Shown: positions 5,240-11,759 of the stretch, piece after piece
How the letters are laid out: every line of letters begins with the position of its first letter
Numbering within the stretch: position 1 is the first letter of the stretch
Virus record (IMG/VR): IMGVR_UViG_2571042372_000005
Source of the DNA: a virus
Taxonomy: Duplodnaviria; Heunggongvirae; Uroviricota; Caudoviricetes
Length of the DNA: 16,037 bases
Reading direction: 5' to 3' (one strand)
Notes under the pieces: model-generated
Seen by the model: the letters and a program-made list of their open reading frames with translations, nothing else
Told to the model about the DNA's origin: nothing
Database searches by the model: none
Translations under genes and position numbers: made by a program

Positions 5240-5265
5240 TGAACCGCCCCGGGTTTCCTGGAGAG
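5240..5265. repeat. IS629 terminal inverted repeat (orfB-proximal end)
   Basis: TGAACCGCCCCGGGTTTCCTGGAGAG; partner at 6524..6549. Confidence 0.8.
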
Positions 5266-5281
5266 TGTTTTATCTGTGAAC

Positions 5282-6172
5282 TCAGGCTGCCAGATCATCG
5301 TTTCCGATGGAAGCATAATAAGCTTTTTCTGCTTCTGCCGGAGGAGTATGGCCCAGCCTTTCCAGCAATCGTCGATTGTTATACCAGTCCACCCACGTGA
5401 GTGTGGCCAGTTCCACTTCTGCACGGTTTTTCCAGCTCTTACGGTGTATTACCTCCGCTTTGTAAAGACCATTGATGCTCTCCGCCATCGCGTTGTCATA
5501 CGAGTCGCCTGTACTTCCTGTTGATGCCAGTAATCCGGCTTCCTTAAGCCGCTGTGTGTAGGCCAGCGATACATACTGAGAACCTTTATCACTGTGATGG
5601 ACCGTGCCGGACGGTCGACGGGCCCATAACGCCTGCTCCAGTGCATCCAGCACGAATGTCGTTTCCATGGACGATGAGACCCGCCACCCCACGATGTATC
5701 CGGCAAACACATCAATGATGAACGCCACATAGACGAAGCCCCGCCATGTGCTGACGTAAGTAAAATCAGCCACCCACAGCTGGTCAGGTCGTTCTGCCAC
5801 GAACTGACGGTTTACGCGGTCGCCTGCGGCAACGGCTTTCCGGCTGATGGTCGTACGGACCTTTTTACCCCGGAGAACACCGGCAAGTCCCATAACCGCC
5901 ATGAGACGTGCCACAGTGCATCTGGCCACTCTGATACCTTCCCGTAACAACTGACGCCAGACTTTACGCACACCGTATACCTTGTGATTTTCATCGTATA
6001 CGCGCTGTATCTCTTTCTTCAGCCAGTCATCGCGCTGCGCACGGGCACTGCGTTTATCCGGATGATGTCGCTGTTGCTGACAGTGGTAATACGTTGACGG
6101 GGCAATATGCAGTTCGCTGCATAGCGGTCCGACCCCGTACTGCTCACGCAGCTTATCCAGCAGTGGCATCAT
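5282..6172 (-). CDS. IS629 OrfB transposase (DDE integrase core)
   Basis: 296-aa ORF in the -1 frame relative to orfA; IS3-family catalytic-core-like sequence ([10 protein letters not shown]...[15 protein letters not shown]). Confidence 0.9.
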
Positions 6173-6495
6173 TTTTTCCAGAGGCGGTCGAACTCCGCCT
6201 TCGCAAAATAAGCGGAAGCCTGGCGAAGGATATCGTTACTGCGGCGCAGTTCACGATTTTCACGTTCCAGCTCTTTCAGACGCTGACGTTCAGCGGTGGT
6301 GAGCCCTCCATCACCGCCCCCGGTATCCCGCTCATGCTGGCGAACCCAGACACGCAGAGTCTCCGGCGTACAGCCAATCTTTGGAGCAATGGAACAAATT
6401 GTCGCCCATTGTGAGTCATATTCGCTCTGACTTTCCAGAACCATACGGACTGCCCGTTGACGGACTTCGGGGGAAAAACGAGTATTTTTAGTCAT
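6169..6495 (-). CDS. IS629 OrfA (HTH/leucine-zipper transposase N-terminal protein)
   Basis: 108 aa, [21 protein letters not shown]...; ends in the A-run GGAAAAAATGA that overlaps the orfB start, the usual site of -1 frameshifting in this family. Confidence 0.9.
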
Positions 6496-6523
6496 CCTGT
6501 TTACCTCTTTCTCAGGAAGTTTA

Positions 6524-6549
6524 GTCTCCAGGATTCCCGGGGCGGTTCA
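6524..6549. repeat. IS629 terminal inverted repeat (orfA-proximal end)
   Basis: Reverse complement reads TGAACCGCCCCGGGAATCCTGGAGAC. Confidence 0.8.
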
Positions 6550-7705
6550 TGATGATTGAGTCTGCGTCCTGTTCAATGCTTCCTGAATCACGCAAATCTG
6601 CGTTTGTCGGGCGTTTGTTTGGTCGCTTCTCAACATCGCGTGAAAGCTGACTCAGGGAAATAACCGGTGTTTTCAGGTCTTTCGCCATCGCCTTCAGGCT
6701 TCCGGAGATGTGAGCAATTGCGAGGTCGTTGCGGTCTGCTTTCGGCTTCTCAATCAGGCCAAGATAATCCGCCATGATGAGTGAGAGGTTTGGATTTTCC
6801 TGTTTGTGCCGTTCTGCGATTGAGCGTATTTCTTCGACCGATAATCGCGAGGCATCGACTACCCATACATCCAAATCTGCAAGCTGACTCATGCCGTTAG
6901 CAACACGTGCCCAGCCCTCGTCATCCATCGATGCAGGATTTCGCAGTACGCTAACCGACATCCTCCCGGCGTTGGCAATGCTTCGCTCTGCAATCTGCAA
7001 TGCGCTCATTTCCATTGAGAAAATCAATACCCCGCGCCGGACGTCAGAACCAGGAATAACGCGGCTTGCAACGCCTTCGGCAATCTTCAGCGCCAGTTCG
7101 GTTTTCCCCATACCAGGACGAGCAGCGATTATCACCAGGTCTTCCGCGTTCATCCCTCCGGTGATGGCATCAAGTTCTTCGATTCCGGTCTTCAGGGTAT
7201 CGGACTCTTCTCCGTTCCTCAGACGCCTGTCAAGCGTGTCAGTGTAGTCGGTGATGATTTCCCCTAACCGTACAGGTTTAACCTCGTCACGGGGCTTTCT
7301 GATGGCTGAGAGACGTTTTACAAGTTCATCCATCGCCTGACTCGATGCGTCGATGGTTCCGCTTTGGATTGGTTCACGCATTTCATCCATGATTTCCAGC
7401 ACCAGACGGCGGTGATAGTTATCCGCGACCATTCCGGCATATCCCTTCAGGTTTGCGGCGCTCGGGCAGTTTTTGCTGGTCATCAGGATTGACGTGAAAT
7501 GCTCCTCTCCGCACGCCTCGGCAACCATCAGCGCGTCGATTAGGTTTCTGTTTCTCGCCTGCTTCCGGATAACCTCGAAGGCTTTCCGGTAGAGCGGAAT
7601 TGAAAACGCTTCCGGCTCCAGCGTTGCAAGAACGTCACTGGCGGTTGGAGTTAATCCACCAATCAGCAGGCCACCGATAACGCTCGCTTCGATATCCTGT
7701 CTCAT
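6550..7705 (-). CDS. DnaB-family replicative helicase (P22 gene-12-like), 3'-truncated by IS629 copy B
   Basis: Walker [12 protein letters not shown]; DnaB C-terminal motifs [36 protein letters not shown], after which the frame runs into the IS inverted repeat; about 45-60 C-terminal residues missing by comparison with E. coli DnaB. Start ATG overlaps the upstream stop (ATGA). Confidence 0.85.
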
Positions 7706-8651: not shown

Positions 8652-8924
8652 CTACCTGCCTTGACGAAAGACCTTAAGAACATCGTTAAACTGACTTACG
8701 GATATGTCTTCTTTGAGAAGCTTTTCCAGAAATGCGTTTGGAATGAACGTATATCCCTCCTCTTTTGGTAGAGACGGGAGCAACGCCCTCGCCTCAGCCT
8801 TCAGAAGCTCAGTTCTGGCAACTTTCACAAAAGAGATTTGAGTTCTTTCATCAATGGAACGAAGGAAGCGCAAACGCTTAGCTTCTTTGTGTGTATCAGG
8901 TGGATTAAAGCCTTTGTTTCGCAT
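8652..8924 (-). CDS. Hypothetical protein (90 aa) between cII and the initiator gene
   Basis: ATG at 8924 with GAGG SD; the ORF-track 181-aa version overlaps cII in another frame and is probably an over-extension. Confidence 0.5.
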   Translation of the reverse strand: MRNKGFNPPDTHKEAKRLRFLRSIDERTQISFVKVARTELLKAEARALLPSLPKEEGYTFIPNAFLEKLLKEDISVSQFNDVLKVFRQGR

Positions 8925-8946
8925 ATAATTACCTCGTTGGATGTTG

Positions 8947-9240
8947 TTAAAATTCCATTTGTATTTGATCAGAACGCTCGGTTGCCGCCGGGCGTTTTTT
9001 ATTGGTGAGAATCGAAGCAACTTGTCGTGCCAATCGAGCCATGTCGTCGTCGACAACACCCCATTCAAGAACAGCAAGCAGCATTGAGAACTTTGGAATC
9101 CAGTCCCTCTTCCACCTGCTGATCTGCGACTTATCAACGCCCACAGCTTCCGCTGTCTTCTCAGTTCCAAGCATTGCGATTTTGTTAAGCAACGCACTCT
9201 CGATTCTTAGAGCCTCGTTGCGTTTGTTTGCACGAACCAT
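8947..9240 (-). CDS. cII: Transcriptional activator CII (97 aa), lambda-type
   Basis: MVRANKRNEALRIESALLNKIAMLGTEKTAEAVGVDKSQISRWKRDWIPKF...QIQMEF matches lambda CII as recalled, essentially residue for residue; upstream AAGGAAATACTTACATATG context also lambda-like. Confidence 0.9.
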   Translation of the reverse strand: MVRANKRNEALRIESALLNKIAMLGTEKTAEAVGVDKSQISRWKRDWIPKFSMLLAVLEWGVVDDDMARLARQVASILTNKKRPAATERSDQIQMEF

Positions 9241-9297
9241 ATGTAAGTATTTCCTTAACAAATAAGAAGTTATGCGCATCAACTTATGCGCGTTGTA

Positions 9298-9341
9298 TTC
9301 CCGCATTTCGGCGGGAATGAGGACCATGACTGTTAAAGAGC
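9298..9341 (-). promoter_or_regulatory. nutR (boxA + boxB hairpin)
   Basis: On the - strand: boxA-like GCTCTTTAACA (9331..9341), then boxB hairpin TTCCCGC-cgaaat-GCGGGAA (9298..9317); the same elements recur at nutL. Confidence 0.6.
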
Positions 9342-9348
9342 AATTTGC

Positions 9349-9534
9349 TTATGCCGCTTTGCGGTAAGCGCTTTCTTGATACTTCAGGGCGCCAGCTGTA
9401 ACGACTTCCAGTCGATAGGCGTCTTTCTCTGGGATGACTTCCTTCCACTGAGAGACTGCTGCGTCGCTAATGCCTAACGCTTTAGCTACAGCACGCTGGG
9501 TTCCGAAGTGGTCGATAACATCTTTCTTGTACAT
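9349..9534 (-). CDS. cro: Cro-like HTH repressor (61 aa)
   Basis: HTH QRAVAKALGISDAAVSQW; divergent from cI across an operator region; GGAG SD. Confidence 0.8.
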   Translation of the reverse strand: MYKKDVIDHFGTQRAVAKALGISDAAVSQWKEVIPEKDAYRLEVVTAGALKYQESAYRKAA

Positions 9535-9614
9535 AGACTCGCTCCGAAATTAAAGAACACTTAAATTATCCACTAAAGGAATCTTAAGTCAAGTTTATTT
9601 AAGATGTCTTAACT
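9535..9614. promoter_or_regulatory. oR / pR / pRM divergent control region
   Basis: pR on the - strand: -35 TTGACT (9587..9592), 16-17 bp spacer, -10 GATAAT (9565..9570). Recurrent operator-like motifs with a TTAAG/TTAAAT core (ACTTAAATT, ATCTTAAGT, TTTAAGAT). Confidence 0.6.
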
Positions 9615-10265
9615 ATGAAAACTCAATTGATGGGAGAGCGCATTCGCGCTCGGAGAAAAGAACTCAAGATCAGGCAGGCCGCACTTGGAAAGATGGTCGG
9701 CGTGTCTAATGTTGCCATATCTCAGTGGGAACGCTCTGAGACAGAGCCAAATGGAGAGAATCTTCTCGCCCTGGCTAATGCGTTGAAGTGTTCCCCTGAC
9801 TATCTGATGAAAGGAGAGGAAAGTCTTTCAAACATTGCCTATCACAGTAGGCATGATCCAAGAGGGTCATACCCTCTGATTAGCTGGGTGAGCGCAGGAT
9901 GCTGGATGGAAGCTGTAGAACCATATCATAAGCGTGCAATAGATAACTGGTACGATACAACCGTAGACTGTTCAGAAGATTCGTTTTGGTTGGACGTGAA
10001 GGGAGACTCAATGACGGCTCCGGCCGGTCTCAGTATCCCTGAAGGAATGATAATACTCGTCGATCCTGAAGTAGAGCCGCGTAACGGGAAACTGGTAGTT
10101 GCAAAGCTCGAAGGAGAAAACGAGGCAACTTTCAAGAAGTTAGTTATTGATGCAGGCAGGAAGTTTCTAAAACCACTTAACCCACAATATCCGATGATCG
10201 AGATCAACGGAAACTGCAAAATCATCGGCGTAGTTGTCGATGCAAAACTAGCAAACCTTCCATAA
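9615..10265 (+). CDS. cI: CI-type prophage repressor (HTH_XRE N-terminal domain + S24 LexA-like autopeptidase domain)
   Basis: HTH LKIRQAALGKMVGVSNVAISQWE; S24 Ser in GDSM and Lys in KKLV; 216 aa. Confidence 0.9.
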   Translation: MKTQLMGERIRARRKELKIRQAALGKMVGVSNVAISQWERSETEPNGENLLALANALKCSPDYLMKGEESLSNIAYHSRHDPRGSYPLISWVSAGCWMEAVEPYHKRAIDNWYDTTVDCSEDSFWLDVKGDSMTAPAGLSIPEGMIILVDPEVEPRNGKLVVAKLEGENEATFKKLVIDAGRKFLKPLNPQYPMIEINGNCKIIGVVVDAKLANLP

Positions 10266-10290
10266 GGGGGCATTCGCCCCTTTTTTTTTA
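10264..10290 (+). terminator. Intrinsic terminator after cI
   Basis: GGGGC-attc-GCCCC followed by T9. Confidence 0.85.
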
Positions 10291-10299
10291 TTTCCTTTA

Positions 10300-10392
10300 A
10301 AAATCAAAGCCAAACTTAAGTTACGAAAGAAAATTTAAGTTTTCTTCAAAAATGCTCTTGACCATTAATTAAAGAGATCTTAAATTTAAGCC
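10300..10392 (+). promoter_or_regulatory. pL promoter with oL operator repeats
   Basis: -35 TTGACC (10358..10363), 17-bp spacer, -10 TAAATT (10381..10386); operator-like AACTTAAGTT, AATTTAAGTT and ATCTTAAATTTAAG share the core seen at oR. Confidence 0.6.
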
Positions 10393-10432
10393 ATCAGCAG
10401 GACGCTGGAAGCCAAACGGAACAGATTGGCAG

Positions 10433-10476
10433 GCTCTTTAACATTGATGGGATTGTCCCGCCGAAATGCGGGAACC
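10433..10476 (+). promoter_or_regulatory. nutL (boxA + boxB hairpin)
   Basis: boxA-like GCTCTTTAACA (10433..10443), 12-nt spacer, boxB hairpin TCCCGC-cgaaat-GCGGGA (10456..10473), identical to the nutR boxB. Confidence 0.6.
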
Positions 10477-10786
10477 AAAGAGTAGTTGGCTTTGGGGTGA
10501 CGTGAAGTGCAGCTGCACGACGGCAACCGGAAGATAAGCACCCGGCGCGTCACCGCCAAAGTCAATTCCATAGGCGTTATGCAGCCGCCACCATATTCAA
10601 GAAAGCTGCACAAGAGGTAGGAGGATTTATGTGAATGCATAACTTCAAAACCGAGGTTAATTAAATCTCTCGATCCGAGCATCGACCTATTAGGTGGCGA
10701 GATGCTCTTTCTGCCCCTCAGTTCGAGGGGCCAGAAACCACTTTGCAATCACTATCAATTCCAAAGTTGTTTCATCGGAGGTCAAC

Positions 10787-11086
10787 ATGACAGTAGTCAT
10801 TACATATCTGGCTGACGATAACGCCAGAAATCGCCGCAGAGCACGCAGACAGGCTCAACGTGAACAGGCGATGCAAGAACAGCGACTGGCGCGAAAAATT
10901 GCGCTAAAGCTCTCTGGTTGCGTCAGAGCGGATAAAGCAGCATCACTCGGAATCCTTCGCTGCAAGAAGGCAGATGAAGTCGAGAGTAAACAGAATCGTA
11001 TTTACTACCGCAAGCCACGCAGTGAAATGGGTGTGACTTGTGTTGGTCGCCAGAAAATGAAATTAGGCAGCAAACCACTTATTTGA
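10787..11086 (+). CDS. N: N-type transcription antiterminator (99 aa)
   Basis: Arg-rich motif DNARNRRRARRQAQREQ near the N-terminus; C-terminus YYRKPRSEMGVTCVGRQKMKLGSKPLI resembles lambda N (YSKPGERGITCSGRQKIKGKSIPLI); GGAGG SD before the ATG at 10787. Confidence 0.85.
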   Translation: MTVVITYLADDNARNRRRARRQAQREQAMQEQRLARKIALKLSGCVRADKAASLGILRCKKADEVESKQNRIYYRKPRSEMGVTCVGRQKMKLGSKPLI

Positions 11087-11094
11087 GGTGATAT

Positions 11095-11565
11095 ATGACA
11101 AAATCATGGAGCGTACCTTTTCCTGAATCAGAAACTGAACATGATGGAATGCCTGTTTTCTGGAGATTCCAAGCGACAGTTGAAGAAGATGGAATCAAAA
11201 TATTCGCACTTCAATATATAGCTTTTCATCAGACAGAGCATTATGCATGGTTGGTTCCTGCGCATTGGATTGTTAATTTTAAACCAGCACCAAATCAGTG
11301 GTTACAGGAATGGAAACAAAGGAGAAATAGATATGCAATTAAGAAAGTAGCAAAAAATGCAGAAAGATCTTTTGCATTCCCGACGAAGAAACTTGCCATT
11401 GAAAGTTTATTGCGCCGGAAGAAATACCATTTGATGAGAATCAAACAAGATTTGGCTGTTGTATCAACTCTTGTTGATGGGATGAAGAATATTGATACAT
11501 CAACACCAGGTATTGAATATAACTTTGGACACAACCAAGAAACAGAAAACTGGGTGTTTTATTAG
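11095..11565 (+). CDS. Hypothetical protein (156 aa), AT-rich insert between N and the tL terminator
   Basis: GAGGTG SD 5 nt before the ATG; base composition visibly more AT-rich than flanking phage genes; no recognisable motif. Confidence 0.5.
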   Translation: MTKSWSVPFPESETEHDGMPVFWRFQATVEEDGIKIFALQYIAFHQTEHYAWLVPAHWIVNFKPAPNQWLQEWKQRRNRYAIKKVAKNAERSFAFPTKKLAIESLLRRKKYHLMRIKQDLAVVSTLVDGMKNIDTSTPGIEYNFGHNQETENWVFY

Positions 11566-11669: not shown

Positions 11670-11695
11670 GCCCTCCAGTGTGAGGGCTTTTTTAT
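11670..11695 (+). terminator. Intrinsic terminator (tL1-like)
   Basis: GCCCTC-cagtgt-GAGGGC followed by TTTTTTAT. Confidence 0.8.
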
Positions 11696-11759
11696 ATGCA
11701 TACCAATAACGCTTCACTCGAGGCGTTTTCGTTATGCAATCAAACAGAAGGAGCATCCT

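Follow-up and report, generated by a model that had tools for sequence, protein, structure and literature searches.

HK620-type boxB hairpins at the predicted nutL and nutR sites of a CUS-3/HK620-like prophage

Two identical hairpins lie on opposite strands on either side of a phage repressor gene. The question is whether they are the nut sites of an N antitermination system, and whether they form with the N protein encoded nearby a specificity pair of their own. The window, which here means the whole stretch of DNA analysed (16,037 nucleotides; Caudoviricetes, IMG/VR record IMGVR_UViG_2571042372_000005), is 99% identical between 6548 and 15817 to CUS-3, a P22-like prophage of E. coli K1. The hairpins are very probably nutL and nutR of a lambda-type N system in a CUS-3/HK620-like (P22-like) E. 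coli prophage, with a pair of boxB and arginine-rich motif (ARM) that belongs to the HK620 type and is unlike those of lambda, P22 and phage 21.

The two nut sites and the N protein

The features of the region are listed below.

8947..9240, minus strand: cII of the lambda type, first gene after nutR (PF05269 Phage_CII, E=5e-48)
9274..9291, minus strand: hairpin GCGCAU-AAGUUG-AUGCGC with a U-rich tail, between nutR and cII, read from the sequence
9297..9318, minus strand: nutR boxB hairpin AUUCCCGC-CGAAAU-GCGGGAAU, core 18-mer at 9299-9316, identical to the annotated HK620 nutR
9331..9341, minus strand: nutR boxA (GCUCUUUAACA), exact match, with a U before it at 9342
9349..9534, minus strand: cro, P22 Cro family (PF14549 P22_Cro, E=8.7e-28)
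9565..9592, minus strand: pR-like promoter TTGACT-16-GATAAT (promoter scan, 10/12 matches)
9615..10265, plus strand: prophage repressor of the cI/C2 type, with HTH (HTH_3, PF01381) and S24 peptidase (Peptidase_S24, PF00717) domains
10358..10386, plus strand: pL-like promoter TTGACC-17-TAAATT (promoter scan)
10433..10443, plus strand: nutL boxA (GCUCUUUAACA), exact match
10456..10473, plus strand: nutL boxB hairpin UCCCGC-CGAAAU-GCGGGA, exact match, predicted fold, identical to the annotated HK620 nutL
10787..11086, plus strand: gene of the N antitermination protein, 99 aa (translation; phrog_271 'anti-termination protein N-like', E=2.9e-36)
11670..11727, plus strand: two hairpins resembling intrinsic terminators, past N in the pL operon (terminator scan, consensus matches)

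An earlier note on this DNA had claimed a boxA-like element and the same hairpin, TCCCGC-CGAAAT-GCGGGA, at both sites, with nutR on the minus strand and nutL on the plus strand. Each element indeed has exactly two matches in the window. For the hairpin (TCCCGCNNNNNNGCGGGA) these are 10456-10473 on the plus strand, where it reads TCCCGCCGAAATGCGGGA, and 9299-9316 on the minus strand, the reverse complement of which is the same 18-mer; the hairpin pattern was found 0 times in 200 dinucleotide-preserving shuffles. The exact matches of boxA (GCTCTTTAACA) are located at 10433-10443 (plus) and 9341-9331 (minus), and the hairpins start 12 and 14 nt downstream of boxA on the same strand at the two sites. 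Both boxA elements agree with the consensus (about GCUCUUUAA) and with its usual place just upstream of boxB.

The sites, their strands and the order of boxA and boxB were correctly assigned in the earlier note. The repressor gene at 9615-10265, which is P22 C2-like, is situated between nutL and nutR; cro is divergent from it, and an intrinsic-terminator-like site (10264-10283) lies 3' of the repressor gene. The pL-like and pR-like promoters are the only sigma-70-like promoter matches within 8700-11500, and nutL and nutR point away from the immunity region, with one of these promoters upstream of each. The pL transcript would start at about 10393, and the nutL boxA follows 40 nt later, which is the same distance as for the annotated boxA-L of phage 21. 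On the other side, cro is the first gene of the pR transcript and is upstream of nutR, the boxA of which starts 8 nt past the cro stop codon. Thus, short stable hairpins with a loop in the 4-7 nt range are present in both early transcripts, after pL and before N, and after cro and before cII. The arrangement is that of canonical nutR and nutL sites, since boxA and hairpin are found downstream of pL and pR, before N and between cro and cII.

Both boxB hairpins correspond to the predicted minimum-free-energy RNA structure; the nutL stem has 6 bp and the nutR stem 8 bp (AUUCCCGC/GCGGGAAU, 9297-9318). A helix that would occlude boxA at nutL was also considered, in which GCUCUUU could pair with AAAGAGU just past boxB in the minimum-free-energy fold. 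It was rejected because its fold has a z-score of only -0.89, no counterpart is present at nutR, and an insertion of about 251 nt splits the two strands in at least 15 loci. No nut-site family exists in Rfam, and a search of the whole window at E<=1 matched only the sar RNA and an IS3 frameshift pseudoknot, at other places.

Between nutR and cII, the hairpin at 9274-9291 may occupy the region equivalent to tR1, which is annotated between nutR and cII in the HK620 and phage 21 records. Downstream of N, the first terminator-like hairpin (11670-11687) consists of GCCCTCCAGTGTGAGGGC followed by TTTTTT, and the second is located at 11708-11727; both are candidates for read-through by N-modified RNA polymerase.

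The predicted N is a small protein with an N-terminal Arg-rich motif, LADDNARNRRRARRQAQREQ, which is encoded at about 10808-10867, and it has known N homologues. Its C-terminus matches lambda N in the cryo-EM complex PDB 6GOV (chain N) with E=1.2e-3, and the Pfam N_peptide model gave a sub-threshold score (19.4 bits against a cutoff of 27.9). The earlier note also held that boxB differs from the GCCCT-gaaga-AGGGC of lambda and that the Arg-rich motif differs from that of lambda N. The first point is borne out by the lambda nutL (GCCCTGAAGAAGGGC) and nutR (GCCCTGAAAAAGGGC) sequences and the second by the translation: when NARNRRRARRQAQ is aligned against AQTRRRERRAEKQAQ of lambda, Ala is found at the position of lambda Trp18, and the ARM of the window N is without any Trp.

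The HK620 type and its distribution

The GenBank record of HK620 (AF335538) annotates 'nutL; putative N-utilization leftward' and 'nutR', in which boxA, spacer and boxB are identical to those of the window, and the first 55 residues of HK620 N are identical to the window N. The hairpin UCCCGC-CGAAAU-GCGGGA at both nut sites is combined in the window with the ARM ...YLADDNARNRRRARRQAQREQ..., which together define the HK620 type. The N/nut pair of the window is therefore of the HK620 type, which is already known at least as a putative annotation and is common in E. coli. The nutL and 5' segment of N are shared with HK140, HK630, mEp213, CUS-3 and several Stx1a-converting phages at 95-99% identity. 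Moreover, the 168-nt pL leader with nutL is present in 1029 of the 5426 complete E. coli genomes (581 records at an identity of at least 95%).

No paper describing or testing the HK620-type boxB or ARM was found in the searchable literature, including searches with the boxB string as DNA, RNA and reverse complement. The N of H-19B has been studied experimentally, and its ARM is 12-RSRRRER-18 (PMC3526286); these data are not transferable to the window N because the ARM differs. In the genome paper of epsilon34, divergent N-termini of N were treated as predicted new boxB specificities (PMC2629481), and that reasoning follows the same logic as is applied here to the window N/nut.

The distribution of the hairpin was surveyed in IMG/VR, where 207 exact copies occur in 120 loci. 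All except one are preceded by boxA (206/207); the exception (L008) is in an unrelated context and was taken as a chance or unrelated occurrence. Only two spacer families were found among the copies, the nutL-type TTGATGGGATTG and the nutR-type GTCATGGTCCTCAT. The N genes downstream of nutL in these hairpin-selected loci carry ...YLADDNARNRRRARRQAQREQ... or a near variant, and the C-terminal halves of N are mosaic (phage-21-like, H-19B/P22-like and others).

The reverse selection, by the ARM (...NARNRRRARRQAQREQ...), gave 79 N genes. The exact nutL hairpin accompanies 75 of them, with an invariant nutL boxA across these 75 loci; the earlier note would have been contradicted had the hairpins not been kept among phages of one N type. 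In the four exceptions the whole site is missing; they were taken as truncated or rearranged loci and do not count as counter-examples. One (L180) has too little upstream sequence, one (L174) has unrelated DNA immediately upstream of N, and in the other two (L146 and L162) the homology ends exactly at boxB and the 251-nt insert is present. This insert has no Rfam match, and its folding energy is ordinary (z = -0.15).

A third set of loci was chosen by the shared pL leader CAGATTGGCAGGCTCTTTAAC, irrespective of hairpin or ARM. The pairings in this set are HK620 boxB with HK620 ARM, GCGCU-GACAA-AGCGC with P22 ARM, and CUCAAC-CUAACC-GUUGAG with phage 21 ARM. Among the roughly 190 loci typed on this scaffold, no mixed pairing of the three types was found. 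Most of the loci surveyed are close relatives, and the raw counts are therefore not independent events. Seven further scaffold loci are untyped, since the regular expression found no N, and two of the seven represent a fourth type, in which boxB GGGGAUGAUUCGUCCCC occurs with ARM MKAREIRKLERARKH. Genome contigs (7 loci, one genome per species) supplied phage-21-type and P22-type comparisons. Thus, boxB and ARM vary together, and further N types each have their own boxB. The same boxB pair also flanks at least 8 different, unrelated immunity cassettes, and therefore nutR tracks N across a highly exchangeable interval.

The comparison across lambdoid phages that the earlier note had suggested is in its favour: the hairpin is kept with the same N type, and is absent with a P22-type or phage-21-type ARM in the same scaffold. 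Its proposal of a distinct N/nut specificity pair is supported by this strict co-inheritance of the ARM with both boxB hairpins and by covariation in the stems, and such a pair is accordingly predicted here on comparative grounds.

Constraint on the RNA and the competing readings

More divergent relatives, probably of other enterobacteria, have an N that is only about 50-60% identical. The ARM core NRRR[AE][RK]R and the loop are retained in them, and the stems vary. The stem variants include G-C to A-U, U-A to U·G and U-A to C-G changes as well as extended stems. Among 12 distinct hairpins, which are interrelated sequences picked by a filter of at least 6/8 pairs that inflates the percentage paired, changes are found on both sides in 4 of the 8 stem pairs. 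Covariation scored 0.32, compared with 0.19 for shuffles (0/500 shuffles reached 0.32), and slid controls gave 0.13 or less. In one nutR lineage, the third stem pair counted from the loop is a C·C or C·A mismatch.

The loops were compared as well. In two loci (L266 and L267), the loops of which were read with no loop filter, the ARM core is unchanged, and the loops are AGAGAU at nutL and CGCAAU at nutR. The inner four bases, GAAA in the common CGAAAU, GAGA and GCAA, all fit GNRA, and they are flanked by C·U, or once by A-U. These variants suggest a GNRA tetraloop with a non-canonical closing pair. A tentative proposal is that the HK620-type boxB may be such a tetraloop and not a true hexaloop, closed by C·U or A-U and read by the Trp-less ARM NRRR[AE][RK]R, which might represent a further orthogonal peptide/RNA pair beside those of lambda, P22 and phage 21. 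Phage-21-like loops, CUUACA or CUGACA, are found in close relatives with the ARM AK[MA]RYRARR, a hint that the loop class, GNRA-type or CUNAC-type, might go with the second residue of the RRR triplet (Arg or Tyr).

The only serious alternative is that the N/nut pair is a true one with overlapping specificity, such that the window N and lambda- or P22-type N may recognise each other's boxB. The lambda boxB pentaloop has a GNRA-like fold, which the loop variants GAAA, GAGA and GCAA also fit. The ARMs can be aligned and share the core RRRxRR with lambda; going by the title of a published paper, the boxB requirements of P22 overlap those of lambda. However, the lack of any mixed ARM/boxB combination on the common leader scaffold argues against such overlap, as do the Ala at the position of Trp18 and a stem sequence, loop length and closing pair that are unlike those of lambda. 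Overlapping specificity is thus considered unlikely, and a distinct HK620-type pair is preferred.

Much less probable is that the hairpins are generic RNA elements unrelated to N recognition, such as intrinsic terminators, RNase III sites or Rho-loading sites. The hairpins are GC-rich, and rutA and rutB are annotated on the flanks of lambda nutR. However, both the sequence and the terminator scan show no U-tract 3' of the nutL or nutR hairpin; moreover, the loop is invariant, boxA always precedes it at a fixed spacing, and the hairpin type switches with the N ARM and not with the neighbouring genes.

The least probable reading is that the repeats act as DNA, either as a recombination boundary or as a protein-binding palindrome: the copies are inverted and bracket an exchangeable immunity cassette, mosaic junctions directly adjoin the nut modules, and the CUS-3 record labels the cI-to-N interval 'boundary sequence', but the copies always lie in the sense direction of the transcript, downstream of boxA, the hairpins of other N types differ and occupy equal positions, and the U·G wobbles in the stems fit only the transcribed RNA sense strand, since the opposite strand would have C·A mismatches there, which argues for an RNA element over a DNA palindrome. 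The short nut homology may aid module exchange as a side effect.

Proposed mechanism and comparison with known systems

With the hairpins taken as nutL and nutR, the mechanism would follow those of lambda, P22 and phage 21. The pL and pR transcripts would carry boxA (GCUCUUUAACA, the NusB/NusE site) and, 12-14 nt later, the boxB hairpin. The N-terminal Arg-rich helix of N (…NARNRRRARRQAQREQ…) would bind the loop and upper stem of boxB, and the phage-21/lambda-like C-terminal part might engage NusA and RNA polymerase. The modified polymerase would then pass tR1 to transcribe cII and the replication genes, and pass the tL terminators to reach the early-left genes. Nus dependence and an absence of cross-reaction with other N types would be expected by the same analogy.

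The analysis fixes the annotation of pL, pR, nutL, nutR and N in the window and identifies the prophage as CUS-3/HK620-like. The current understanding of N antitermination is unchanged, and the element is a real but ordinary member of the lambdoid N/nut systems. The HK620-type pair is abundant among prophages of E. coli, some of them Stx1a phages. It could serve as an additional orthogonal tethering pair, and could also be used to test how ARM peptides read GNRA-type loops.

Compared with HK620, the window has the same genomic placement of N, nutL and nutR. HK620 has a different cI and cro, whereas the immunity region of the window is P22 C2/Cro-like, as in CUS-3. The HK620 N ends with ...CLPNVAIYAAGYRKSKQLTAR, whereas the C-terminus of the window N is phage-21/lambda-like; the N leader of the window also contains an extra insert of about 205 nt (10567-10771).

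The comparison with phage 21, for which the record is fully annotated, is the clearest one. Phage 21 shares the site positions and a boxB hexaloop with the window. The two N proteins are 68% identical overall and about 92% identical over residues 34-99, whereas residues 1-33, including the ARM, are replaced. From the annotated pL start of phage 21 through boxA, the two pL leaders agree at all 57 nt; they differ only over the spacer and boxB, after which the match resumes, and nutR has the same pattern. On these alignments, three separate patches (the N ARM, the nutL boxB and the nutR boxB) are changed together relative to phage 21 within a near-identical scaffold, which makes the locus a clean natural case of modular co-replacement. 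In phage 21 the ARM reads GTAKSRYKARRAELIAERR. The boxB hairpin of its nutL is CUCAAC-CUAACC-GUUGAG and that of its nutR is CACC(U)-CUAACC-(G)GGUG; these two stems differ from each other, whereas those of the window are identical. The window has neither the CUAACC loop nor the TAKSRYKARR motif of the phage 21 class.

P22 (gp24/nut) shares its leader scaffold and its N-terminal extension, MTV(I/V)..., with the window, and the immunity genes of the window are P22-like. Its ARM (GNAKTRRHERRRKLAIER) and its boxB (GCGCU-GACAA-AGCGC) are different.

The lambda system has the same architecture, a homologous C-terminus of N and the common ARM core RRRxRR, and both loops are purine-rich and GNRA-like. 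Its boxA is CGCUCUUA, and its boxB, GCCCU-GAA(G/A)A-AGGGC, has a 5-bp stem with a pentaloop. Lambda N is without the 10-residue N-terminal extension, and has Trp18, which is without an equivalent in the window N. The window is thus outside the lambda class, which combines GCCCU-GAARA-AGGGC with a Trp18-containing ARM.

Insertions around nutL and in the N leader

An insertion of about 251 nt was found exactly 3' of the nutL boxB, with the arrangement ...GCGGGAAC^TGAGTTTAACC...GTGTGAGT^CAAAGAG... (^ marks the junctions). At least 15 viral contigs carry it, as do several complete E. coli genomes; among the carriers are the IMG/VR viral loci L021, L046, L105, L146 and L162 (L162:165-427) and the E. 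coli genome matches H41-H49. The 5' half of nutL is absent in both L162 and L146, and the C-terminus of a different N gene lies upstream in L162. The insertion had no match in Rfam, and its folding energy is unremarkable (z = -0.15).

In the nutL of the window (10433-10482), the boxA sequence GCUCUUU could pair with AAAGAGU directly 3' of boxB, and the hairpin would then be enclosed. No equivalent helix was found at nutR. The pairing is probably fortuitous, because its fold shows no significant gain over shuffled sequences and the 251-nt insertion splits the helix in many loci.

Relative to HK620, the N leader of the window contains an insert of about 205 nt, which is shared with CUS-3 and is located there inside the annotated 'bsq5 boundary sequence'. 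The features are:

10567-10771, N-leader insert
about 10714-10732, GC-rich hairpin GCCCCTCAGTTCGAGGGGC within the insert, with no U-tract

The IS3-family element and the state of the prophage

The following features were identified in the window:

about 5249-6548, IS3-family insertion sequence, with the Rfam frameshift pseudoknot RF01497 (120 bits)
6214-6098, - strand, ALIL pseudoknot of this element
6521-7705, P-type replicative helicase gene, adjoined by the element
near 405-417, - strand, second copy of the IS terminal sequence CCGGGTTTCCTGGAGAGTG (IS-end-like, 417-399)
1194-1260, + strand, sar antisense RNA of the P22 immI (ant/arc/mnt) region (RF00262, 83.9 bits)

The helicase gene is apparently truncated by the IS element, and the homology to CUS-3 ends at 6548. 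The sar RNA and the immC region are located on opposite sides of the element. Given the second copy of the terminal sequence, it is likely that the prophage has been rearranged or is defective.

In the viral locus L095, nutR lies about 2.9 kb upstream of its own nutL, and its boxB is broken within the loop (TCCCGCCG^TGAACCGCCCCGGGTTTCCTGG...). The sequence that breaks it is a match to the IS end found in the window, and this nutR looks like a natural IS knockout.

Variation of boxB and further N/nut types

One nutR lineage (L014/L260, L049/L306/L307, L262, L277 and L266/L267) has the form GCUCCC[GA]C-loop-G[CU][ACC]GGAGC, and base pair three, counted from the loop, is always mismatched as C·A or C·C. 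The nutL partner is fully paired; the internal mismatch in nutR may be tolerated or functional.

Other N/nut types were also found in the IMG/VR loci, and in each of them nutL and nutR both carry a boxB particular to that type:

L252, L264, L273, L274 and L296, fourth type, Arg-rich motif (ARM) MKAREIRKLERARKH paired with GGGGAUGAUUCGUCCCC
L279-L294, further type, N-terminus ...SVSRRYLKRGELIAKRRAE... paired with UCUCCCGC-CCUU-GUGGGAGA
L261, L263 and L265, further type, ARM AK[MA]RYRARR paired with CUUACA or CUGACA loops

Clearly, many more ARM/boxB pairs exist in nature than the three with structural studies.
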